Made by a program: the position numbers and the translations under genes. Positions 2,382 to 29,967 of a stretch of 32,000 bases of DNA are shown here, piece by piece (positions within the stretch are counted from its first letter, which is position 1; every line of letters starts with the position of its first letter). The DNA is from Candidatus Nanosynbacter lyticus (lineage in GTDB: Bacteria > Patescibacteriota > Saccharimonadia > Saccharimonadales > Saccharimonadaceae), in the NCBI RefSeq assembly GCF_030253515.1, contig NZ_CP124549.1:270001-302000 (forward strand). Reading direction: 5' to 3'. The notes under the pieces are model-generated. The model had not been told where the DNA came from. It searched no databases and saw only the letters and a list, made by a program, of their open reading frames with translations.

Positions 2382-4979
2382 TTACTTCTTTGAGCGGCTG
2401 CTTTTTCTCGGGGATTTGGATGGTTTGGTTGAGGTGCGGCCGCGGCGGGCGGGCTTCACGGGTGCGACCTTCAGAAGCTCCAAGGCTTGCTCGTGAGTAA
2501 TGGTTTTTGGGTCGGTGTCTTTAGGGACTTTGGCGTTTTTCGTGCCATCAGTGATGTACGGGCCAAAGCGGCCGTTGAGGACTTTAACACCATCGCCAAA
2601 GTCAGCGATGTTTTTCTCGGCTTCGGCCTGGAGTTTGGCGGCGTAGAGCTCGCGGGCTTTCTCTAGGGTGATGGTGTGCGGGTCTTCGGGCTTGATGGAG
2701 ACGAACAGCTTGCCGACTTGGATGTACGGGCCAAAGCGGCCGATGTTGGCTTTGATGTCTTGTCCGTCTTCGGTTTGACCGACGACCCGCGGCAACTTGA
2801 ACATTTCCAGCGCTTGCTCCAGGGTGACGGTTTCAATTTTCGCCCCCTTCGGCAGCGGCGCAAAGCGTGGTTTGTCCTCGTCGTCAGTGGCTCCCAGTTG
2901 CAACATTGGACCAAAGCGGCCAAAGCGCGCCAGGATTGGTTTGCCAGATTTTGGATCGATGCCGACTTCGCGGTTAGCGCCGACTTTACTGCGGTCGATG
3001 CCGCCTGACTGCTCAATCAGTTTGTGAAACGGCGTGTAAAATCCGTGCAGCATGGCGCTTTTGGCCAGCTCAGCGGCAGCGATTTTATCAAATTCGGTTT
3101 CGACATTGGCGGTAAAATCATAGTCAACGATCTGCGTGAAATGGTCGGTCAAAAAGTCGGCGATTAGTTCCCCGCTTGGCGTTGGGATGAGCTTGCCGCG
3201 GGTGGAACCGGTTTTTTCTTGGATGACGTCGCGGCTGACTTCCTCGCCGTTGTAGCTGAGGACGATGACGTCGCGCGGCTGGCCTTCGCTGTCGCCCTTT
3301 TCGACGTAGCCGCGGGTCTGTACGGTGTCGATGATAGTGGCGTAGGTGCTTGGCCGGCCAATACCGAGATCTTCGAGTTTTTTAACCAGTGAACCTTCGG
3401 TGTAACGGGCCGGCGGCCGGGCGAAGGTTTGGCGGGCGATGATGTTGTGAGTTTCAAGCGTGTCGCCAGAGTGGAGCTTCGGCAAGATTTCGTCTTTGCC
3501 GCCGCCATAGACGCGTAGGAATCCGTCGAAGGTGATGACTTCGCCTTTGGCTTCGAAGTATAAGTCTGCGGTAGCCGCCTCTCGGACATCGTCAGAAAGG
3601 TCGGTATTACCAGCGCCACGCTCCTGCGCTGGAGTACTCTTTTCGCTTGTATCTCCACTGGAGATACTAAGCGAGCGTTCGGCTGAAACGTCCGCTCCTC
3701 GCGAACGTTTCACAGCCTCCAGCGCAGGAGGTGTCGCTGGCGCTGGCTCATCTGGCGCGAGTGGCGTCTCAGAAAAAATCTGGGCAACTTCATGTGGGTC
3801 CCGGATTGTTTTATGAGATGCCCGAGCGCCGCCGATAGCGATTACCATCGTGGTTTTCTCTAACTTCGCTGCCGACATTTGCGATGCCAGAGTGCGGCGG
3901 CGGATGAGGTCGTAGAGTTTTTGGTCGTACTCGTTGGAGGTGACGGTTTCGCGGGTGATGTCGGTCGGGCGGATGGCTTCGTGAGCTTCCTGGGCGGAGG
4001 CGGATTTGGTTTTGAATTTACGCACAGTCGAATAATCTGGGCCGTACAGCCGCTTGATGAAATCAGTCGCGCTGGCGATGGCCTGCCCGCTCAAATTGAC
4101 TGAGTCGGTGCGCATGTAGGTGATTTTACCGTCTTGGTAGAGCCGCTGGGCCGAGGCCATGGTGGCCTTGGAGCTGAAGCCAAGCTTGGCGTTGGCCTCT
4201 TGCTGCAAGGTTGAGGTCGTAAACGGCGCGGCTGGGTTGCGGGTGCCAGGCGTTTTTGAGATATCGCTGACGGTGAATGTGGCTGGCTTGAGGCTGCTCA
4301 AAAATTCGTGGGCGGCTGCTTCAGAATCAAATTTCTGGTTAAGTTCGGCTTTGAATTCTTGATTGTTATGGATAAATACGGCGGTCACCTTGAACTGCGA
4401 GCTACCCTCAAATTTCATAATTTCTCGTTCACGCTCGACCAATAGCCGCACCGCTGGACTCTGAACACGTCCGGCTGACTTGCCGCCCGGTACTTTTTGC
4501 CAGACTACCGGGCTGAGCTCAAAGCCAACCAATCGGTCGAGAATCTGCCGTGCCTGCTGGGCTTGCACCAGATTCATATCAACAGTGCGCGGGTTTTTAA
4601 TGGCATTGGTGATGGCGTCCTTGGTGATCTCGTGAAAAACGATGCGCTTGGTCGTCTCAACCGGCAAATCCAGCACTTTACAGAGATGCCAAGCAATCGC
4701 CTCCCCTTCGCGGTCTTCATCGGTGGCCAGCCAGACGTTGTCTTTGCCGACGGCCTTGACATTTTTCTTTAGCTCGGTGATGACTTTCTTTTTCTCGGGA
4801 TCAACTTCGTAGACAGCAAAAAAATCATTCGCCACATCAATCGGCGGCGTGCCGTCCTTGGTTTTTTTGACAATCGAGCGGATGTGCCCCACGCTTGATA
4901 AGACATGAAAATCCTTGCCCAAATATTTCTCAATGGTTTTGGCTTTGGCTGGTGACTCGACGATGACGAGATTTTTCAT
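2382..4979 (-). CDS. topA: DNA topoisomerase I (type IA) with a GRFGPY-repeat C-terminal domain, a Lys/Arg-rich tail and an in-frame low-complexity insertion of about 85 aa
   Basis: 865 aa. TOPRIM N-terminus MKNLVIVESPAKAKTIEKYLG and DEDREGE; active-site region ITYMRTDS. C-terminal repeats ARFGRFGPMLQLG, ANIGRFGPYIQVG and LNGRFGPYITDG replace Cys4 zinc fingers. The tail is KPARRGRTSTKPSKSPRKSSRSKK. The insertion ARASHKTIRDPHEVAQIFSETPLAPDEPAP...NTDLSDDVREA lies just before the conserved FEAKGEVITFDGFLRVY. Confidence 0.95.
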   Translation of the reverse strand: MKNLVIVESPAKAKTIEKYLGKDFHVLSSVGHIRSIVKKTKDGTPPIDVANDFFAVYEVDPEKKKVITELKKNVKAVGKDNVWLATDEDREGEAIAWHLCKVLDLPVETTKRIVFHEITKDAITNAIKNPRTVDMNLVQAQQARQILDRLVGFELSPVVWQKVPGGKSAGRVQSPAVRLLVEREREIMKFEGSSQFKVTAVFIHNNQEFKAELNQKFDSEAAAHEFLSSLKPATFTVSDISKTPGTRNPAAPFTTSTLQQEANAKLGFSSKATMASAQRLYQDGKITYMRTDSVNLSGQAIASATDFIKRLYGPDYSTVRKFKTKSASAQEAHEAIRPTDITRETVTSNEYDQKLYDLIRRRTLASQMSAAKLEKTTMVIAIGGARASHKTIRDPHEVAQIFSETPLAPDEPAPATPPALEAVKRSRGADVSAERSLSISSGDTSEKSTPAQERGAGNTDLSDDVREAATADLYFEAKGEVITFDGFLRVYGGGKDEILPKLHSGDTLETHNIIARQTFARPPARYTEGSLVKKLEDLGIGRPSTYATIIDTVQTRGYVEKGDSEGQPRDVIVLSYNGEEVSRDVIQEKTGSTRGKLIPTPSGELIADFLTDHFTQIVDYDFTANVETEFDKIAAAELAKSAMLHGFYTPFHKLIEQSGGIDRSKVGANREVGIDPKSGKPILARFGRFGPMLQLGATDDEDKPRFAPLPKGAKIETVTLEQALEMFKLPRVVGQTEDGQDIKANIGRFGPYIQVGKLFVSIKPEDPHTITLEKARELYAAKLQAEAEKNIADFGDGVKVLNGRFGPYITDGTKNAKVPKDTDPKTITHEQALELLKVAPVKPARRGRTSTKPSKSPRKSSRSKK
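3588..3650 (+). repeat. possible degenerate copy D of the palindromic element, inside topA, in the same orientation as A and B
   Basis: It starts atcgTCAGAAAgg, compared with atcaTCAGAAAat in copy A. The encoded peptide QERGAGNTDLSDDVR parallels QKKSGIVSGPELSSDDTR (B) and QKKSGQLYVGPGLFSDDIR (A). Nucleotide similarity is weak in the centre and the right arm. Confidence 0.4.
3757..3821 (-). repeat. palindromic repeat element copy C, inside topA, in reverse orientation relative to copies A and B
   Basis: gcgagtggcgtcTCAGAAAAAATCTGGGCAACTTCATGTGGGTCCCGGATTGTTTTATGAgatgc. By hand alignment, the 50-nt core 3767..3816 matches the reverse complement of copy A (17092..17141) at 46/50 positions. In topA it is read in frame as HKTIRDPHEVAQIFSE. 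Confidence 0.85.
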
Positions 4980-7680: not shown

Positions 7681-8664
7681 ATGACGCAGACAATTGAGCA
7701 CGATACCTTAGTCAAATTAAGTCAAGAGCGCCCGTTGGTGTTTCGAGCGCAGGCAGCTACTGTCTTGGCACGCGTACCGCGACGATTTCGACGAGACGCG
7801 CGGGTGCTGAATCATAGCAAGCGCACAATGCACGACATGTTGACGGCGTGGCGGGACGAATGTTTGCCGAGGTTAGAGACGATCACCTCGGCGCATAATG
7901 CGACAATGTTGCAACAAGCCTTGCGGGAGGATTTGCTAGCCGAGACGTCGTCGCAGCAACAGCTGATTGCCATGATGATACCGGTGCGGCTCGAGGAGGA
8001 GCGACTGGCCTTTGCGGGGTCGCAGTTTACGTCAAGGCGAGAAAAAAAGCCGTATCGACGAACGCTGGCGTTTGCCCAGCAGCCAATTGATGTCTGTCGG
8101 CAGCAGGTTGAAGATTTTATGAGGTATGAACTGTACCGGGCGGTGCTCGGTGAGGTTGGTGTGACTGTGGTGGATAAGCAGGCCCGGGGGCTGGTGCGAT
8201 GCTGGCAGCGGCTGCGGGCTGGTCGTCAGGTTAAGAAACTGCGGCGCGAGGTAACCAGGCGCTTAGCGGCAATTGAGCGAGAAATGGTGGCGATTGAGCA
8301 GGAGCGCGGCGGCTTGGCGGCCCGGCTGTTCGGGCTGAATATTGATTATGTGACGGTACTAGCAGCGCGACAGGAGTATGAAAAGGCGCTGGGTCGGCTG
8401 AGTAAAAAAGCGGCCGAGAGCCCAGCCAAGCGGCTGGCGCTATATGAGAAAAAGACCGAAGCGATTCGCGAGGAGTATCTCGATACGGTACCGGGCGTGG
8501 CGAATTTGTCAGAGGCGCAGCGGGCGGTCAAGGAAATTGATTCGGTGCTGCTGGCGATTTTTGACCTAGACGCGACAGCACGCAACGAACTGATGAGTGC
8601 GTTCAAGCGCTACCGGATGCTGACGCGTGAGCGGGATGTGCTACGGGCGAAGCTTGAGGTGTAG
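7681..8664 (+). CDS. hypothetical Arg/Glu/Ala-rich protein, probably coiled-coil (327 aa)
   Basis: Long ORF with its own promoter. Composition and heptad-like stretches such as RRLAAIEREMVAIEQERGGLAARL suggest a coiled coil. No catalytic motif was recognised. Confidence 0.6.
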   Translation: MTQTIEHDTLVKLSQERPLVFRAQAATVLARVPRRFRRDARVLNHSKRTMHDMLTAWRDECLPRLETITSAHNATMLQQALREDLLAETSSQQQLIAMMIPVRLEEERLAFAGSQFTSRREKKPYRRTLAFAQQPIDVCRQQVEDFMRYELYRAVLGEVGVTVVDKQARGLVRCWQRLRAGRQVKKLRREVTRRLAAIEREMVAIEQERGGLAARLFGLNIDYVTVLAARQEYEKALGRLSKKAAESPAKRLALYEKKTEAIREEYLDTVPGVANLSEAQRAVKEIDSVLLAIFDLDATARNELMSAFKRYRMLTRERDVLRAKLEV

Positions 8665-9179: not shown

Positions 9180-9246
9180 GTCGCAATTGTATCACTTATT
9201 GCGACAAAATTGCAATAAGCTACACAATGCGCCATACTGATGAGCT
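9179..9246. promoter_or_regulatory. divergent fur/NAS promoter region carrying motif copy S1 and an extra half-site (probable operator)
   Basis: Plus strand: TTGCAA(9209..9214)-17-CATACT(9233..9238), then 8 nt to ATG 9247. Minus strand: TTGCAA-18-TACAAT (reverse complement of 9186..9191), then 6 nt to ATG 9179. The palindrome CTTATTGC-N9-GCAATAAG (9195..9219) and the half-site TGTCGCAAT (9179..9187) overlap both promoters. Confidence 0.6.
9199..9218 (+). repeat. 20-bp motif copy S1 (TTGCGACAAAATTGCAATAA; 16/20 to the window consensus)
   Basis: Read directly from the sequence. It lies in the fur/NAS intergenic region. Confidence 0.8.
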
Positions 9247-10030: not shown

Positions 10031-10050
10031 TTGAGACATTGTCGCAATAA
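10031..10050 (+). repeat. 20-bp motif copy S2 (TTGAGACATTGTCGCAATAA; 19/20)
   Basis: It lies between the convergent stops of the NAS-like gene (10014) and the TIGR03943-like gene (10061). Confidence 0.8.
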
Positions 10051-13083: not shown

Positions 13084-13103
13084 TTGCGACATTGTTGCAA
13101 TAA
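13084..13103 (+). repeat. 20-bp motif copy S3 (TTGCGACATTGTTGCAATAA; 19/20)
   Basis: It lies between the convergent stops of the TerC-like gene (13038) and pth (13157). Confidence 0.8.
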
Positions 13104-13761: not shown

Positions 13762-14730
13762 ATGGCGAAACGCGATGACGATTTGGAATTTAGTGTTAAT
13801 GCGGCGTTTGACGAAGAGCGGGCGGTCGTTGACAAGGTGCCGCTTTATTTGGTGAATGGCTCGCTGGGTGCCGGCAAGACTAGCGTGCTGGAATTCTTAT
13901 TGCAACAAAGTGACTATAAGGGCGCGCGAGTGATTGAAAATGAATATGCCAATGAAAATGTCGACGGCTATCGGCTGGAGGGATTGGCGGAGATGGTGAC
14001 GACGCTGGCTGGTGACTGTGTCTGCTGCTCGTCGAAGCATGCGCTGACGCGGATGCTGCTGGACTTTTGTCGTAATTCTCCGGCGCCAGTGTTTATCGAG
14101 GCGGCGGGTGTGGCGCGAACGATGAATTTGGTTGAGAAACTGATAAACGCACAAATCTTCAATAAGTATGAACTGATGCAGAGTTTTTACGTGATTGATG
14201 CGCACGAGATTTTGCGCGGGATTGAGCCGGCGCACGAAATTGAACTGCAAGCCGCAGACGTGATTTTGGTGACCAAGGAAGATTTGCTGAATGATAGAGA
14301 GCGAGATGAATACGAAGCAAAACGCCGCGCCCTGCCCTACGCCAAGGTTTTAAGCGCGCCGCACGGTCAGTTTGACCTCAGCAAAATCATCACGCCGTCG
14401 GGACTGCTGGCGTTTTTTGATACGTACGACGGCGAGCTGGCGGTGCCGGATAATCCGACGTACGCCGTGCTGGATGTGTCGGGTATGAATATCTCTGCAA
14501 TGGCGCTAGAAAACATGTGGCCGGAGTTGTTCAGGGCGTATGGCCTACGGCGGATGAAGGGGTGCTTTATCAGTGACAGCGGCGTGCGTCAGCATGTGGA
14601 GGCGACCGAGCAGCAGATTCAGTTAACTAGTGCCAGGCCCGAGGAAGCGGCGAAGATCGTGCTCATCGGCGAGCGAGCAGATGAAATCACGCGCGATATC
14701 TTGCAGATGCAGCTGATGATGTTTGAATAA
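13762..14730 (+). CDS. COG0523-family (CobW/ZigA/YeiR-like) metallochaperone GTPase
   Basis: Walker A GSLGAGKTS and the metal-binding CxCC motif GDCVCCSSK; a C-terminal CobW_C-like region is present. The start was taken at ATG 13762 (MAKRDD), with TATAAT at 13750..13755 six nt upstream. The ORF track starts at 13744. Confidence 0.8.
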   Translation: MAKRDDDLEFSVNAAFDEERAVVDKVPLYLVNGSLGAGKTSVLEFLLQQSDYKGARVIENEYANENVDGYRLEGLAEMVTTLAGDCVCCSSKHALTRMLLDFCRNSPAPVFIEAAGVARTMNLVEKLINAQIFNKYELMQSFYVIDAHEILRGIEPAHEIELQAADVILVTKEDLLNDRERDEYEAKRRALPYAKVLSAPHGQFDLSKIITPSGLLAFFDTYDGELAVPDNPTYAVLDVSGMNISAMALENMWPELFRAYGLRRMKGCFISDSGVRQHVEATEQQIQLTSARPEEAAKIVLIGERADEITRDILQMQLMMFE

Positions 14731-16652: not shown

Positions 16653-18197
16653 TCATTTCTTGTCAAGAACAACCAAGTGCTCAATATGCGGTGTGCGCGG
16701 GAAAAAGTTGTAGCCATGATGATGGACGATGCGGTAGTGTTGTTGGAGCAAGGCGACATCGCGGGCTTGGGTGACGGGATTGCAGCTGAGATAGAGGATG
16801 CGCGGCGGCAGCTGTTGCAACAATGTCGCAATAACGTCGGGATGCAAGCCGGCGCGCGGCGGGTCAACGATGACGATTTCCTTGCCTGTAATGTAGTCGA
16901 GAGCTTGTTCGCTGGGAGCGAGGACAGCGCGGGCGTCAGTGCGGTCAAGTTCGGTGATGTTACGCTGCATCTCGGCGACGGCGTGTTCGTTGATTTCTAC
17001 CAGTGTGACGTTGCCATCAGCAATGGTCAGGCCGATGGTGCCAACGCCAGCATAGAGGTCGATGGTTGATAATTTGACAGCTCGAATATCATCAGAAAAT
17101 AATCCGGGACCCACGTAAAGTTGCCCAGATTTTTTCTGAGATATTGCTCGCTGTTGACTATCGGTGTTATCATGTGCCGCCAACTGATCCAGCTGGCGCT
17201 CTTGGCGCGCCTTATTGTACGGTACCCATTCCCGCATATCGCATAGCGCCTGCTCGTAAACCGGGATGTTGACTTGGAAAAAGCCTTCGCAGGCGTAGCA
17301 AAATGGCACACCAAGAATGGTGTCGGTCAAGGTGGTGTTGCCGAAATGCGCTAGTTGCTCGGTGATGCGGCTGGCTGGTGAGCGCGGGTCGGAGTAGATG
17401 ACTTCCCCGCCCTGAGCCGGTAATTTGGCGGCTTCATCAGCGGTAATTATTTCGGGCAAGCGATCCTTGATATACAGCTGCCAGACGCAACTTCCTGACT
17501 GATCGCAGCGGACGAGCAAGGTCTTGAGCTGGCGAGCCGCGACGCGTTTATGGCGCAGTAAATCACGGATAGCCCGCGCCAGGTTATTGATTTCTGGGTG
17601 TGCCAAACTTGTGCCCTCGACGACCACCTTGCCCTTGCTGCCGCGACGGAAAAATGCCAAGTCAAGCGTATCAATCGATGATTCTTCACGGTCGCTATCC
17701 GCGTCTATCCCCCGGGTATCATCAGAGGATAATTCGGGACCTGAGACAATCCCAGATTTTTTCTGAGGTACCGCTCGGGATACTACCGATTCGCTGTACC
17801 AGCTAAATTCAACTTTGTTGCGATAACCATATGCGACATTGTCGCAATAAATATCAATCGCTGCTGGTAGTGTGACATTATGCAGTGTAAACGCATCATT
17901 AATCAACTGTGCCTTATACGTCTGCTCAACTTCGAGTGGAATAATCTGCCACGGGCTGGTCGACAGATAACTATCTGGGTCACGTGGCTGGATGCGGTCG
18001 GGGCTTGGCGAGATTACTTCCTCGGCGACCGCCTCGACGAAGTGCGATTTCTTTTTGGTAATGCGAACGGTGACGGTCTCGCCCGGCAGCCCGCCCCATA
18101 CGAAACATTTGCGGCCGTCAGCCAGCGTTCCTAGTGCTTGCCCGCCACCAACAATTTTCTCTAGTGTCAGCGTCTCGAAACTCTGCCGTCCCATCAA
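16653..18197 (-). CDS. TrmA/RlmD(RumA)-family RNA (uracil-5-)-methyltransferase with a TRAM domain, carrying two in-frame insertions
   Basis: TRAM-like N-terminus (GETVTVRITKKKSHFVEA), SAM motif I DLYAGVGTIG, DPPRAGL, and catalytic YLSCNP. Insertions sit around VPQKKSGIVSGPELSSDDTRG and SQKKSGQLYVGPGLFSDDIRA. The likely true start is ATG 18194, with TATAAT (reverse complement of 18202..18207) 7 nt upstream. Confidence 0.85.
   Translation of the reverse strand: MMGRQSFETLTLEKIVGGGQALGTLADGRKCFVWGGLPGETVTVRITKKKSHFVEAVAEEVISPSPDRIQPRDPDSYLSTSPWQIIPLEVEQTYKAQLINDAFTLHNVTLPAAIDIYCDNVAYGYRNKVEFSWYSESVVSRAVPQKKSGIVSGPELSSDDTRGIDADSDREESSIDTLDLAFFRRGSKGKVVVEGTSLAHPEINNLARAIRDLLRHKRVAARQLKTLLVRCDQSGSCVWQLYIKDRLPEIITADEAAKLPAQGGEVIYSDPRSPASRITEQLAHFGNTTLTDTILGVPFCYACEGFFQVNIPVYEQALCDMREWVPYNKARQERQLDQLAAHDNTDSQQRAISQKKSGQLYVGPGLFSDDIRAVKLSTIDLYAGVGTIGLTIADGNVTLVEINEHAVAEMQRNITELDRTDARAVLAPSEQALDYITGKEIVIVDPPRAGLHPDVIATLLQQLPPRILYLSCNPVTQARDVALLQQHYRIVHHHGYNFFPRTPHIEHLVVLDKK
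16814..16833 (+). repeat. 20-bp motif copy S5 (TTGCAACAATGTCGCAATAA; 18/20), inside the methyltransferase CDS
   Basis: It encodes DVIATLLQQ on the minus strand. Confidence 0.8.
17087..17151 (+). repeat. palindromic repeat element copy A, inside the methyltransferase CDS
   Basis: tatcaTCAGAAAATAATCCGGGACCcacgtaaagttgCCCAGATTTTTTCTGAgatattgctcgc. The arms TCAGAAAATAATCCGGG and CCCAGATTTTTTCTGA are complementary apart from one bulge and one mismatch. It is translated as SQKKSGQLYVGPGLFSDD. Confidence 0.85.
17717..17778 (+). repeat. palindromic repeat element copy B, inside the methyltransferase CDS
   Basis: tatcaTCAGAGGATAATTCGGGACCtgagacaatCCCAGATTTTTTCTGAggtaccgctcgg. Against copy A the left arm matches at 17/20 and the right arm at 17/17, and the centre differs. 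It is translated as PQKKSGIVSGPELSSDD. Confidence 0.85.
17831..17850 (+). repeat. 20-bp motif copy S4 (ATGCGACATTGTCGCAATAA; 19/20; contains the perfect 15-bp palindrome TGCGACATTGTCGCA), inside the methyltransferase CDS
   Basis: It encodes DIYCDNVAYG on the minus strand. Confidence 0.8.
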
Positions 18198-18925: not shown

Positions 18926-20218
18926 GTGACCAATAGTAAAGATGAAAAGTTAAAGCTGCTCTATATACAATGCCGAGACGCATATCACGAATGGCTTATA
19001 GAGCAAGGAGTAGACGATAGCTTCGGGGGTATACCATTTCCTGGATGGTTTTATGACCCCTACAACATCCCTGCTGAGTTGCTGTTTAGGGCATTGTACG
19101 GAAAAGTCAATAATAAGACCACAGCGCGCGCTGAATTTGATAGCAAGCTTCTTAGCATGGTTTATAAAAATGATACCTATGACAGAGAATCGCTAACAGC
19201 AAGGCCACAGGACTTAGAATACAAGAACTTCACTGTTTGCTTTCAAATATATTTTCGGTCAAAGACTGCCAAAGTAGATCTATTCAAAACACAACTTACT
19301 CTTTCCGGTATTAAGTTTACATGGTGTAGCGAGCGAGCGTTTTGGAAGATAGTTGATAAGGTTGGTGGCATGAATGAGTATTTGCAGTATCGAAATAAAG
19401 TTTTTCCAAAGCTCAACAACGAATTTGGTACTTACACAGTTAAGGCTCAGGTCGCCGACCTTACTGTAGAAGAGGCTGTTAATAAAGCTGCGAGAGCTTT
19501 TCAGGGTTTTATGGACTGTGTTAATGTCGTACAGTCGTTTAACCGTCAGAAACGTAAGCTCTCACACGGCCCGAACGATAATAATATGGCCATAAGTGAC
19601 GTTGGTGTGTTTGTTGCAGAGGAAGATAGCAAAGTCGAGATACTCTGGTCTAATATAAGAAGACACTCTTTGCCTTCGGAAAGTCTTAATAGTTTAGATA
19701 TTGGTAAAGAGCGTTTATATAAGGTGCTGATAAGGGCGTTTCAGGATAATAATTCTGTAGTTGCCGAGCGATTGAAGTATACTGTTATGGAATTTGCGTC
19801 TGCTTTGAGTGCGGAAGATCCAAATCTTGGCCTGTTGGGATTTTGGAGGTGTCTAGAGATTGCTACCAGGAAAGCAAACCAACAAACTCGCAAAGAAGAA
19901 GAAATACTAAATATATTCAAAAATTATCACCCTGAGGAAAAGTACTGGAGACAGCAAGGGTCTCTAATAAAGGAAGTTCGCAATACTTACGTTCATCAGG
20001 GCGTCTCTAGTGTAAAGGATACGCCCGACTACTACCTAAACTGGTCTAAGCAATACGCTGAAGCTGCCATTGGGATATTAATATGGCTTTACAATAACCG
20101 TGCGATATGGAAAGATAATGACGATATCGATATCTTTTTTGATCATTATAGCCAGTCGAGCCACAAGCTTGAGCTAGCTGGAAAGGTATTAAGGGGGCGC
20201 AGTGTTCGCGTTGCATGA
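18926..20218 (+). CDS. hypothetical protein (430 aa) with a C-terminal helical region carrying an RNxxxH (HEPN-like Rx4-6H) motif
   Basis: GTG start at 18926, 8 nt after TATAAT (18912..18917). The C-terminal region is LGLLGFWRCLEIATRK...GSLIKEVRNTYVHQGVSS, with the R-N-T-Y-V-H codons at 19979..19996. The gene is AT-rich. The N-terminal two thirds were not recognised. The HEPN call rests on a single short motif plus helical context. Confidence 0.55.
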   Translation: MTNSKDEKLKLLYIQCRDAYHEWLIEQGVDDSFGGIPFPGWFYDPYNIPAELLFRALYGKVNNKTTARAEFDSKLLSMVYKNDTYDRESLTARPQDLEYKNFTVCFQIYFRSKTAKVDLFKTQLTLSGIKFTWCSERAFWKIVDKVGGMNEYLQYRNKVFPKLNNEFGTYTVKAQVADLTVEEAVNKAARAFQGFMDCVNVVQSFNRQKRKLSHGPNDNNMAISDVGVFVAEEDSKVEILWSNIRRHSLPSESLNSLDIGKERLYKVLIRAFQDNNSVVAERLKYTVMEFASALSAEDPNLGLLGFWRCLEIATRKANQQTRKEEEILNIFKNYHPEEKYWRQQGSLIKEVRNTYVHQGVSSVKDTPDYYLNWSKQYAEAAIGILIWLYNNRAIWKDNDDIDIFFDHYSQSSHKLELAGKVLRGRSVRVA

Positions 20219-20244: not shown

Positions 20245-22485
20245 CTACTTTTTCGCCTCTTGTCTCTTATTAAAGAAGTAGATAAACTGCTTTATTATGG
20301 CCTCCTTAAGCTCGGGGGATTTTTCATTTCCCACTTTTGCGATAGTGCGAATACTATTTGTCGTCGGACGCTCAAACAGTACAAGATCTACCTCCTGTAT
20401 ATTGCCTAGAGTGCCATATCGCGGATCGGATATGATAATTTGGTGCAAAGTATCAATATTGATAATGGTATCTATACTAAGCATTATATCTGGTGTCAAA
20501 TCTCTATAGGTATAATCGCTTTTGCCCATAGTATGCCAAGTTCCTACGAACTGTAGTATAAAGCCTATTACATCATCTGCTGACTGTATCTTTTTCTCTA
20601 AATACTGACTAGTCTCCTCTCTGGTGGAAAGCTCAGCCCATCTTGTGTATAGTCGGATAGATGAGCCATTTTGACTGAGTAGCGGCAATTTATCATTCTT
20701 AGCAAAGCACCTGATACACTGCAAAGCGGTAGTCTTATATTGTTGAATTTGATCTTTTTTCAGTTCAATAGAGTGATTACCCTTATTTGTACTGTAATGG
20801 ATTACGTGGTCTATAGTGCGTGAGAATGTATCTATTCTGTCTTGGTCGAAGAGATGATTAATGAGAGAGATATATCCTGTGGTCTTTTCATCTTTACTTT
20901 CACTGGCAAGTATGTCATCGATAGTAAATAACACTCTCTCTAATGCCGTAAGTGTTAGTGAAGATGATCTGGCAGTAGGCATTCCTTCGATTAAATCCAG
21001 TAGACATGTACAGAATACTATTTTGTTTTTTATGACACTGTGTCTTTTAGAGATAATCCATAGTGCTGTGGCAATATTATTCTCGTTGATTATGTGTAAG
21101 TTTTTACGAATAGACGCCTCATCAACAGAATTCGTTAGTAAATTCATAACTGCAACATCAGAGATATCCTCTATTTCGTCAAGCGATGCAAAGAACTTCT
21201 CGAAATAATAGTCTGAGGCAATCCGCTGGTGGTACCGTAGGTCATTCTCATTTATATTGCCATAGCCCTTAAGTGTATATGCAACAAAAGGAAATAATTC
21301 TTGTACTATCTCTAACCAACGATCGTCGCCTCCGAAAGTATCCTGAAGGTCCTGCTTGCGAGAGGTGTCGTCATTAATGCCATATTTAGAGCTGATTTTT
21401 TCTATTAACATATCCCCGTTGTTTTTGATTCTTTCATATAGGCCATCGTCAAATAGGCGAATAATTTCAAGTACTATGACATCAACCATATTCATCTCTC
21501 CGTGGCACAGGGGAAGTCTAAACAATAATGAATTATTCAGTCGGTTAATATCTCTCGGTGATTGTATATATGCACCCAGGTCGTGATACCCGAGTATAAG
21601 TCGGAATCGCTCTATTTCATTTTCCTCTAAGACAATGGAATGTTGCTTACAGATTGATTCAATAGTAGCCGCCAGCATCCTATTTAGCGACGACCTGCTT
21701 GCTTTGGGTAGCTCAAGAGGTATTTGTATAATTTTTTCGAGGTATTCTTGGCCGCTGGCACCTTGTGGAAGGAATTGTTCAATTGCCGATGCAACATACC
21801 TATTGTCAAATGGAAGTATATATACTATACCGGCATAGTTTGCTATTTGGGCGATTATATGCATCAGATCTGTGATGCTTTGACTTTCAAGTCTGTCTAT
21901 GTCATCAATGACAACGATCACTTTTTTACCTGATTCCTTAATTTCTTCCTGTGTTTTAATCTTAATCTTATTTATGAAGTAGCTTGATTGTAGTATCCTG
22001 CTGACATAATCCATGCTCGCTGTAATCCTACCGAGGTATATGGACGTCTCCTTGCGACCCCCAGAGTTAAGGTCGATCTCTATAGTGGAATCAATTGGAA
22101 GTTTTGCTCTACTTAATTTGCCGAAGAATCTGCTAGTTTTTTCTCGAAAGCCGCCGAAGGCTTTGTCGGTAACTTTTTCGTATATGTTTTTAAGAATTTC
22201 ATGAAAAATTGCGTCGCCGTTGCCATTAAGCTCCCAGGCATTAAGTTTGACAAGGACTGGTTTATTCTTTCTCGTGCTGTCATTAATTCTTTGTTCAATT
22301 AAATTAATAGTAGATGTCTTACCGGAGCCCCAGCTTGCATACAGGCCGATGATAAAGCTCCTCTCTTTGTCGAGTGAGTTCAGGATACTGACTATTTTTT
22401 CTGCAAAAGAAAGCCTTCCAAGTGAGTCATATTTCTTTGAATTGATCGGACTATCAGAGCTATAGGTATTCATTCTACAGATCAT
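20245..22485 (-). CDS. KAP-family P-loop NTPase (soluble form, no obvious transmembrane insertion)
   Basis: Walker A in the KAP-typical context IIGLYASWGSGKTSTINLI and Walker B KKVIVVIDDIDRLES. A long helical C-terminal region follows. The gene is AT-rich. An alternative start is ATG 22473 (MNTYSSD). Confidence 0.8.
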   Translation of the reverse strand: MICRMNTYSSDSPINSKKYDSLGRLSFAEKIVSILNSLDKERSFIIGLYASWGSGKTSTINLIEQRINDSTRKNKPVLVKLNAWELNGNGDAIFHEILKNIYEKVTDKAFGGFREKTSRFFGKLSRAKLPIDSTIEIDLNSGGRKETSIYLGRITASMDYVSRILQSSYFINKIKIKTQEEIKESGKKVIVVIDDIDRLESQSITDLMHIIAQIANYAGIVYILPFDNRYVASAIEQFLPQGASGQEYLEKIIQIPLELPKASRSSLNRMLAATIESICKQHSIVLEENEIERFRLILGYHDLGAYIQSPRDINRLNNSLLFRLPLCHGEMNMVDVIVLEIIRLFDDGLYERIKNNGDMLIEKISSKYGINDDTSRKQDLQDTFGGDDRWLEIVQELFPFVAYTLKGYGNINENDLRYHQRIASDYYFEKFFASLDEIEDISDVAVMNLLTNSVDEASIRKNLHIINENNIATALWIISKRHSVIKNKIVFCTCLLDLIEGMPTARSSSLTLTALERVLFTIDDILASESKDEKTTGYISLINHLFDQDRIDTFSRTIDHVIHYSTNKGNHSIELKKDQIQQYKTTALQCIRCFAKNDKLPLLSQNGSSIRLYTRWAELSTREETSQYLEKKIQSADDVIGFILQFVGTWHTMGKSDYTYRDLTPDIMLSIDTIINIDTLHQIIISDPRYGTLGNIQEVDLVLFERPTTNSIRTIAKVGNEKSPELKEAIIKQFIYFFNKRQEAKK

Positions 22486-28836: not shown

Positions 28837-29967
28837 CTAGTCCATAACGATTAAACCGCTAGTTGACATTTCGGTCAGTAGTATTGGCAGCAGTTCCTTA
28901 TTCCTAGATAGCGTCAGAGCATACTTCTTCTTGCTGTAGTACAACAGTCCTCTATCTGTTAGTTCTCTTAGTTTTCTTGACCGCCGCCTATCGTTAGCTG
29001 AAGAATTACCGCCGAAAATCATAGAAACATCTCGAGCCTGAATCACGTCTTTTTTAACAGCAACTTCTAAAATTTGCCTTTCTTCGTCAGATAAAGCTTT
29101 TATTTCGGCTGCTCGTTTCAGGGTTGGTAGAATTACTTTCTCAACAACTTCTTTTTTATCGAGGAGCTGCATGGTTCGCTTGATTTCTTCCTTTATTCCT
29201 TCCGCAACATAAAGACACCACTTTTCAAGCAGCGAATCATCTCCTGTTTCTATTCCTCTATCAGCTACACTTAGCATTTCATAATATCGTCTGCGATCAA
29301 CGCAAAAAATTGAAGATGGATTCAATACGGACGCATCGTGAATAAACCCTTTTTGAACCAGCATAGCGTAGGTAAAGAGCCTAGCTACACGGCCGTTTCC
29401 GTTCTCAAAAGGATGAATCAGCGTAAATCTATGATGAGCAAGAGCTATATTGATGATATCAAACTGAGGCGCTTCGCGTATGTTTACTGTGTTCAGCAAG
29501 TCCTCAAGCTCTTCCTTAACCTTCAGATGACTTGTTGTTTTTGCTGAGCTGCCATTAATGATATTATCTCTGGTCTTAAATTGTCCAGGATGTTCCGCGC
29601 CGTCTTTATCAAGAGGTAGATCCTTCACTACAATTTTATGCAGCTCGCGGATCATTGCCAATGTGATGTCATCGCCAGCTTTTATCGTTTCGTCTATAAA
29701 ATTCAGACCTCTACGGATATTCAGAAACTGCTTTACTTCATCAACTTCTTCTTCCTCGCTATTTTCTATCGAGCTAATCGCAGCAGAAACAAGGGTAGTG
29801 TTATTCCCCTCAATCCGTGCGGAGGCGACACTTTCCATAAGATATATAATATTTTTAATATCATAAAATATCCAAGGCGGTGTCGAGCCTTGTATATAAC
29901 GATTGCGCATATTCTCAATCTCAAAAATAGTATTAGTGATAGGAGAATCAAAACGAGGATTTATCAT
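28837..29967 (-). CDS. Fic-family protein (AMPylase-type motif) with an N-terminal inhibitory-helix motif and a C-terminal winged-helix-like region
   Basis: Fic motif HPFENGNGRVARL (HxFx[DE]GNGRxxR) and an N-terminal SARIEGN ([ST]xxxE[GN]). The gene is AT-rich. TATGAT (reverse complement of 29974..29979) lies 6 nt upstream of the ATG. Confidence 0.85.
   Translation of the reverse strand: MINPRFDSPITNTIFEIENMRNRYIQGSTPPWIFYDIKNIIYLMESVASARIEGNNTTLVSAAISSIENSEEEEVDEVKQFLNIRRGLNFIDETIKAGDDITLAMIRELHKIVVKDLPLDKDGAEHPGQFKTRDNIINGSSAKTTSHLKVKEELEDLLNTVNIREAPQFDIINIALAHHRFTLIHPFENGNGRVARLFTYAMLVQKGFIHDASVLNPSSIFCVDRRRYYEMLSVADRGIETGDDSLLEKWCLYVAEGIKEEIKRTMQLLDKKEVVEKVILPTLKRAAEIKALSDEERQILEVAVKKDVIQARDVSMIFGGNSSANDRRRSRKLRELTDRGLLYYSKKKYALTLSRNKELLPILLTEMSTSGLIVMD

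Follow-up and report, generated by a model that had tools for sequence, protein, structure and literature searches.

In-frame palindromic modules within topA of Candidatus Nanosynbacter lyticus and their recurrence in three other genes

The closest described counterparts of the DNA reported here are the Rickettsia palindromic elements (RPEs; Ogata et al. 2000 and 2002), which are summarized in PMC10969869 and PMC1779305, the latter giving their size as 100–150 bp and describing them as abundant also in intergenic DNA. A comparable arrangement was identified in a 32,000-nt stretch of the Candidatus Nanosynbacter lyticus genome (contig NZ_CP124549.1, positions 270,001–302,000; hereafter the window, with coordinates counted from its first letter), where the topA gene, encoding a type IA DNA topoisomerase I, contains a 256-nt composite of two palindromic modules that we designated E and H. 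Both systems comprise short palindromic repeats carried by a bacterium that has a reduced genome and depends on a host, and in both the repeats lie in frame within unrelated housekeeping genes, add extra peptide segments at positions tolerated by the protein fold and have no gene of their own. In keeping with an RPE-type system, in-frame copies were found in four host genes, and the copy in TopA forms a low-confidence loop in an otherwise confident structural model. We consider it probable that the topA insert is coding palindromic DNA of a selfish or neutral nature, broadly of the RPE kind, gene-less and resident in housekeeping genes. Full-text literature searching found no description of coding palindromes in Saccharibacteria or Patescibacteria, and coding palindromic cassettes are apparently undescribed in this phylum.

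The correspondence with RPEs is one of description only. The host belongs to Candidatus Saccharibacteria and not to Rickettsiales, so membership by descent is not expected, nor is sequence kinship across phyla. Module E (~77 nt), module H (137 nt) and the composite (256 nt) are strongly palindromic and fall only partly within the RPE size range. Further differences are that two module families form a composite here, that both orientations are used as coding sequence, and that none of the at least 219 E copies listed is intergenic, all being placed in four host genes. Modular composites, coding by both strands and occurrence, among the copies listed, in four genes only are unusual traits in comparison with known coding palindromes. 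Repetitive extragenic palindromic (REP) sequences, characterized by a conserved GTAG head, and the bacterial interspersed mosaic elements (BIMEs) are extragenic imperfect palindromes of 20–40 nt linked to REP-associated tyrosine transposases (RAYTs), whereas the present modules are 77–137 nt, intragenic and without a GTAG head; no RAYT-like family was detected in window open reading frames (ORFs) of at least 150 aa. Palindromic amphipathic repeat coding elements (PARCELs; PMC2996958) likewise consist of dyad-symmetric coding DNA that is shuffled within and between genomes, but they form tandem arrays of a 25-residue amphipathic motif within ORFs that have no known function and in many cases carry membrane-targeting sequences, in contrast to the single cassettes inside conserved enzymes seen here.

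The topA gene occupies 2382..4979 on the minus strand, adjoining dprA, and was defined by its ORF and translation (865 aa). Its product shares 96 % identity with proteins annotated by NCBI as type I DNA topoisomerase of Candidatus Saccharibacteria bacterium oral taxon 488 and matched TopA entries in the PDB with E values down to 3e-130. A first-pass annotation, made from the sequence alone, had described an in-frame insert of ~85 aa just ahead of ADLYFEAKGEVITFDGFLRVY, and the ORF translation bears this out: the insert comprises TopA residues 385–470 (ARASHKT...DDVREAAT), is rich in Ala, Ser, Pro and Glu, and is directly followed by ADLYFEAKGEVITFDGFLRVY. These residues have no counterpart in the solved TopA structures of Mycobacterium smegmatis and Escherichia coli, alignments to which break at query residues 386–389 and restart at 471–473. 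The gap corresponds to a four-residue turn around E. coli TopA residues 416–421, carried by a hairpin that we take to be part of domain II. An AlphaFold2 model based on an 81-sequence alignment had a mean predicted local distance difference test score (pLDDT) of 85 for the whole protein, with values below 50 only at residues 390–470 (block means 27–40) and in the C-terminal tail, and it placed the insert at the tip of a beta-hairpin, flanked by strands 371–383 and 474–484. As modelled, the insert is a disordered surface loop in a permissive hairpin turn, and its earlier reading as an insertion tolerated in an essential enzyme holds.

Orthologues at or below 69 % identity (P0121 and ~45 other representatives) possess a plain turn, e.g. 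SIEISGEKELFEAKGEV, the turn region spanning 38 residues in these proteins versus 124 in window TopA. The insert is therefore clade-specific, and the phylum-wide conservation that the first-pass annotation had raised against a mobile origin was not seen in the orthologue alignment. All of the more than 130 TopA sequences seen from the clade keep some insert at the turn. The same turn in a 59 %-identical relative (P0139/L127:20-1645) contains a different, nearly perfect in-frame palindrome of ~115 nt, which folds at −69.8 kcal/mol and whose outer arms extend into codons of both flanking beta-strands, whilst P0135/L128 carries yet another insert of 22 aa. The presence of different inserts in these two relatives indicates that the turn is a recurrent target. 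A TopA encoded on a metagenome contig (L148) displayed a 70-residue stretch (TVTIDIEGGELSAHDKTSTQTRELNDDETRRGEDCLSEASS...) between KLEKT and FEAKGE that could not obviously be related to the peptides of E or H. Elsewhere in the gene, the 3' part at 2553–2943 contains three direct repeats of ~26–33 nt (GGCCAAAGCGGCCG...) at spacings of 168 and 189 nt; these look ordinary, since their position matches repeated C-terminal domains (PF13368, Toprim_C_rpt).

The composite cassette extends over 3576..3831 (minus strand), is read as the ~85 residues noted above, and has the order E, spacer, H and half-E. The intact E (copy C; 3754..3830, minus) is a hairpin of ~77 nt that includes an outer stem GGCGC/GCGCC and encodes ARASHKTIRDPHEVAQIFSETPLA. 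It was recovered by nhmmer at 3758–3824 (minus; E = 1e-18 to 2.5e-22) and is 92 % complementary to 17092–17141, and the right end of the insert is accordingly a genuine copy of the element, as first described. A spacer at 3747..3753 (minus), read off the sequence and variable among alleles, separates it from module H (3610..3746, minus), a branched palindrome of 137 nt delineated by its inverted repeats and fold, which encodes PPALEAVKRSRGADVSAERSLSISSGDTSEKSTPAQERGAG. The outer stem of H pairs 3610–3634 with 3717–3746 and includes a perfect 14-nt pair, CTCCTGCGCTGGAG/CTCCAGCGCAGGAG, of which CTCCTGCGCTGGAG forms the core of the 3610–3634 arm and pairs with 3717–3730. Within this stem lie an inner hairpin (3681..3717, minus; GGCTGAAACGT...ACGTTTCACAGCC) and a second small hairpin (3649..3667, minus; GTATCTCCA.TGGAGATAC) with perfect 9-nt arms. 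The arms of the inner hairpin, at 3684–3695 and 3701–3712, are 92 % complementary and correspond to the interior inverted repeat TGAAACGTCCGC/GCGAACGTTTCA that had already been pointed out; across 44 distinct H variants the hairpin core showed little or no change. The interior of the insert is thus not filler but a further palindromic module that has a distribution and inversions of its own. As single-stranded DNA, 3575–3830 folded at −75.7 kcal/mol versus a shuffle mean of −40.9 (z = −10.1). The cassette ends (CTCGGGCATC-TCATAAA on the coding strand, CTCGGACATCGTCAGAAA on the opposite strand), each read 5' to 3' inward from its own end, are inverted copies of one E arm and so constitute terminal inverted repeats. 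A 94-aa antisense ORF also crosses the cassette (3532–3816, plus). It does not have the appearance of a gene and looks like a by-product, as the palindromic modules are stop-free on both strands.

The left end of the cassette required reinterpretation. It had been described as a decayed full copy of the element, 63 nt long, at 3588..3650, of which only the outer part stands: the copy is a 29-nt half-copy of E at 3581..3609 (plus; inverted relative to copy C), encoding ...NTDLSDDVRE, and 3610–3650 belongs to H. Profile searches detected little here, a three-copy nhmmer profile matching only 3582–3598 (E = 7.6) and a profile iterated from ~80–90 matches returning nothing at E ≤ 1. Smith–Waterman comparison of 3588–3650 with copies A, B (both located in a methyltransferase gene, below) and C yielded p = 0.03–0.37 against dinucleotide shuffles, and by the same test 3601–3650 had no significant similarity to any E copy (p ≥ 0.38). 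Orthologous alleles were more informative. In one allele class, designated I-type, an intact element is present at the C-terminal junction (SQKKSGLALAGPGLFSDDVRE/AATADL), and its last bases, TTTCTGACGATGTCCGAG, and the following flank are identical to the window. The 16 aligned bases at 3583–3598 are exactly the terminus of this intact inverted E at the same junction, with a match score reached by 0 of 2000 shuffles of 3575–3612, and by eye the identity covers all 18 bases of 3581–3598 (CTCGGACATCGTCAGAAA). Another allele, P0047/L126, retains a longer remnant comprising ~26 nt of the same arm (CCCCGGCTTTTCTGACGATGTCCGAG; element arm GTCCCGGATTATTTTCTGACGATGTCCGAG). Because these orthologous alleles match, we assign 3581–3609 as an inverted half-copy of E. 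The segment is missing from a further class, the K-type alleles. At the peptide level, the likeness of LSDDVR to the element-encoded peptide is real, whereas that proposed between QERGAG and QKKSG was unsupported.

The same unit, with the same ends, was also found inside dus, which encodes a tRNA-dihydrouridine synthase. Three dus alleles carried the composite at 93 % (L220), 91 % (L214) and 87 % (L232) identity, with alignments covering window positions 3576–3831 (L220, L214) or 3581–3831 (L232) and dus sequence on each side of the cassette, as in all dus alleles used here. As a same-ended 256-nt stretch recurs in an unrelated gene, the composite is a discrete unit. This recurrence is the strongest support for the first-pass proposal, which holds, that the insertion is composite and has inverted copies of the element at its two ends. 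Two further dus alleles differed in composition: L014 carries E alone, 97 % identical to window 3754–3831, whilst in L131 E is reversed and stands ahead of H and the half-copy, such that both orientations of E occur at the same dus site.

Copies of E were sought in species-representative genome contigs with an exact 17-mer seed, chance matches in other phyla being dropped, and in metagenome contigs with an exact 20-mer seed, yielding at least 70 and at least 149 copies, respectively. All of these at least 219 listed copies lie in four genes, namely a PF05958 methyltransferase gene, topA, dus (PF01207) and a gene for an ABC-F-like ATPase with two ABC domains, in which E is in frame; one copy, at a contig edge beside topA sequence, was without a gene assignment. 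No intergenic copy was listed with these exact-E-word seeds. The host genes provide five E sites, two of them in the methyltransferase. In other genomes, H was found either way round in topA, dus and the ABC-F gene. In the window, the methyltransferase host is a RumA-like, tRNA/rRNA (uracil-5)-methyltransferase-like ORF at 16653..18197 (minus; Pfam PF05958), containing copy A (17083..17152, plus; nhmmer E = 1.6e-23; read as SQKKSGQLYVGPGLFSDDIR) and copy B (17713..17781, plus; E = 1.3e-21; read as PQKKSGIVSGPELSSDDTR), which lie 630 nt apart in the same orientation, copy A being in frame. The window therefore contains three full E copies and one half-copy in total. The first methyltransferase site (17150–17260) was rearranged between genomes (L007, L116, L099, L092, L027 and L061): some alleles displayed only the right half of E followed by a small hairpin (GCCTTTGCCGGAAAGGCAAAGCC), and a segment encoding ARQERQLDQL was found on the opposite side of E relative to the window. 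Among four metagenome contigs (L163, L242, L168 and L180), we also noted some that pass through the cassette from one host gene into another, with the dus N-terminus joined to the topA C-terminus and the ABC-F N-terminus joined to the dus C-terminus; in L168 and L180, topA is instead connected to unrelated ORFs. Such cross-gene contigs are most likely repeat-induced assembly chimeras and less likely real ectopic recombinants.

On conceptual translation, E is read in either direction, as ...RASHKTIRDPxxxAQIFSETPLA... one way and ...SQKKSGxxxxGPGLFSDDxR... the other, with both orientations found in coding frames. By inspection, nearly all of 54 distinct E copies were open in both frames, and the absence of stop codons from the frames in use allows the cassettes to persist in host genes. 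Compensatory double changes were present in 10 of the 21 E stem pairs, the comparison covering 30 of the 54 distinct copies; GCACC/GGTGC, ATATC/GATAT and ACATC/GATGT are instances. H comprised at least two sub-types whose outer stems, CTGGAG/CTCCAG and CCAGAG/CTCTGG, differ compensatorily by eye. The E loop variants CCACGTAAAGTTG, CCGCTAAAGCCAG and CCGAGACAAK were common to different sites, which points to exchange between sites. G–T mismatches, counted against A–C in order to tell RNA-level from DNA-level pairing, were not in clear excess on the model strand (33+13 versus 18+8); per-gene strand assignment is unreliable for these counts and no conclusion was drawn from them.

A survey of 120 close TopA proteins and ~45 loci revealed several allele types at the topA turn. 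The Q-type, to which the window belongs, comprises E, H and half-E. In the I-type (P0114/L121, L021, L026, L071, L093, L107 and others), the whole E and H block is inverted without loss of frame, and only CTCG remains of the left E, with window coding positions 40–235 aligning to the reverse complement of the I-type sequence. The K-type comprises E, 36 extra nt and then H, without half-E. Shorter forms were also observed: P0116 retains E only, 63 residues having been deleted at a GAG microhomology to leave an insert of 23 residues; most of E is missing from P0091; and P0098 and P0073 display internal or terminal deletions. ABC-F alleles contained E with H direct, E with H inverted, or E with H lost by excision at a GCGC repeat at the foot of its stem, the last reading PPA/QERG; this form and P0116 exemplify deletions at hairpin bases. 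The polymorphism among strains that had been proposed as a check on the insertion is therefore present, with alleles that are element-only, without the element, without the interior or with the block inverted.

We propose that homologous (ectopic) recombination or gene conversion probably carries the composite from one element-bearing site to another, with help from natural competence. The palindromes themselves would yield inversions, hairpin deletions and stem-restoring changes through arm–arm recombination or template switching, and no dedicated transposase or invertase need be involved. Ectopic recombination or conversion can explain the sharp shared ends, because an E already present at a site offers homology on both sides; E, H and the composite act as interchangeable parts. 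Arm recombination or template switching would account for restored pairing, such that no selection on structure is needed. A Pfam scan of the 20 window ORFs of at least 150 aa found no transposase, integrase or invertase family, and Saccharibacteria are naturally competent and genetically tractable (PMC10633639).

Several observations weigh against selfish or neutral cassettes of this kind. No topA site free of an insert was found within the clade. No target-site duplication was seen at the topA junctions (flanks ...ATCGGC / GCTACC...) or the dus junctions (...GTACC / AGCGAA...), where boundaries are uncertain by 1–3 nt. With five sites, the family may be old and non-proliferating, maintained by conversion and no longer transposing, and movement itself is inferred. 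Covariation in the E stem could equally reflect selection on RNA or DNA structure. The all-intragenic distribution of the copies listed, unlike that of RPEs, may be a sampling bias of exact-word seeding, and some dus alleles derive from metagenome contigs, in which chimeras across the cassette exist and bring a risk of artefact. The outermost 5-bp stems of E were considered as candidate inverted target-site duplications and rejected, as GGCGC/GCGCC accompanies E in both topA and dus.

The alternative that survives best, although we regard it as unlikely, is that the composite resembles a transposable element of the miniature inverted-repeat type (MITE) mobilized in trans by a transposase that is encoded elsewhere and recognizes the inverted E termini. 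MITEs such as Correia/CREE, ERIC and BOX (PMC10969869) are likewise small, non-autonomous and strongly self-complementary, with terminal inverted repeats and occasional in-frame fusions. The composite has imperfect terminal inverted repeats of ~18–23 nt, sharp ends common to two unrelated genes, and a small unit size without an ORF of its own, all of which are consistent with such mobilization. Set against this are the lack of a direct target duplication at either the topA or the dus junctions, the lack of any cognate transposase family among the window ORFs scanned, and a tiny copy number that, among the copies listed, is restricted to four host genes with none intergenic. Moreover, E alone and H alone both occur, and the modules invert and recombine independently; recombination consequently fits better than cut-and-paste transposition.

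A functional nucleic-acid structure, whereby the hairpins would be selected as mRNA or DNA stem-loops that pause translation or replication or bind protein and coding would be incidental, appears improbable. It would account for the compensatory changes in the E stem, for a cassette that folds far better than its shuffles (z = −10) and for the unlike palindrome of ~115 nt in the same topA turn of the 59 %-identical relative. However, the modules occur both ways round in four unrelated genes, and there are alleles devoid of E, of H or of most of the cassette. A scan of 3400–4000 against Rfam gave no match at E ≤ 1. Template switching is also established to restore pairing in quasi-palindromes without selection, so that the covariation does not call for a structural function.

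Still less probable, in our estimation, is a programmed intragenic inverton, in which a recombinase would flip the block between the E arms, or H between its own arms, and thereby give rise to recoded TopA versions within a population. Recoding intragenic invertons (bioRxiv 10.1101/2023.03.11.532203) similarly comprise an ORF segment flanked by inverted repeats and existing in two in-frame versions. Here, inverted repeats flank segments wholly inside the ORF (E arms at 3581–3609/3754–3830, H arms at 3610–3634/3717–3746), both orientations occur in frame in topA, the ABC-F gene and dus, and in-silico flips of H alone (3610–3746) or of 3599–3808 remain stop-free, whereas a flip of 3581–3826, or of E alone, creates a TGA in this allele. 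In one pair, I-type and Q-type TopA were 99.5 % identical at the protein level outside the insert. That identity prompted us to consider a recent active inversion, which was rejected: between Q-type and I-type DNA, the flanks are 96–98.5 % identical, but the inverted blocks (E) are only ~85 % alike and the spacers strongly divergent, so that the inverted alleles are not mirror images. The Q-type also has only half of the right E and the I-type is without the left E. Given the ~85 % similarity of the blocks and the differing spacers, I and Q are best explained as old alleles moved between backgrounds, not as fresh flips, and an active inverton is unlikely on the same grounds. The orientations seen here are thus old, diverged alleles held by different strains, in contrast to the described recoding invertons, and no invertase family was found in window ORFs of at least 150 aa. 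Flanking topA DNA was 89–92 % identical among all species representatives, a star-like pattern that leaves a phylogeny of orientation without resolution. Finally, an adaptive, lineage-specific protein loop selected for TopA function, with the similarity to other genes secondary, is highly implausible: the retention of some insert by every clade member and the other inserts at this turn in more distant Saccharibacteria would suit it, but the insert peptide becomes wholly different once the block is inverted, P0116 makes do with 23 residues, the same DNA is present in dus, the ABC-F gene and the methyltransferase gene, and the loop has no confident predicted structure.

Other features were also observed in the window. 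A palindromic motif of 17–21 nt, TTGCGACANTGTYGCAA, unrelated to E and H, is present at about seven places (7898–7914, 9199–9215, 10031–10047, 13084–13100, 13900–13920, 16815–16831 and 17831–17847). Pattern searching gave 11 strand matches at six sites versus 0.05 expected, and the site at 13900–13920 came from the repeat search. The sites at 16815 and 17831 lie inside the methyltransferase ORF. The motif might act as a binding site for a regulator or as an uptake-type signal. The window also encodes a KAP-family P-loop NTPase (20245–22485, minus) and a Fic/DOC protein (28837–29967, minus), with a nearby ORF of 430 aa (18926–20218, plus) that had no Pfam match; the region containing these three genes may be of a variable or defence type.

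At a practical level, sharing of the 256-bp cassette leads to metagenome contigs in which unrelated genes are chimerically joined, and it inflates apparent protein diversity in widely binned oral genomes. For the host protein, the alleles indicate that a single hairpin tip of an essential topoisomerase can accommodate between 23 and ~98 residues of variable sequence. In-frame coding palindromes have hitherto been treated as a peculiarity of Rickettsia; an unrelated, comparable family in Saccharibacteria, which are ultrasmall and epibiotic, would hint that such palindromes are tied to genome reduction and dependence on a host, and these bacteria would permit tests of the spread and cost of such DNA (PMC10633639). 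More tentatively, and with some doubt, we suggest that oral Saccharibacteria may harbour modular coding palindromes, open on both strands and only in a few essential nucleic-acid enzymes, which would move, flip and exchange without a transposase by using their own hairpins as landing pads. Coding palindromes would then have arisen a second time, independently of Rickettsia, and might continually recode surface loops of essential enzymes.

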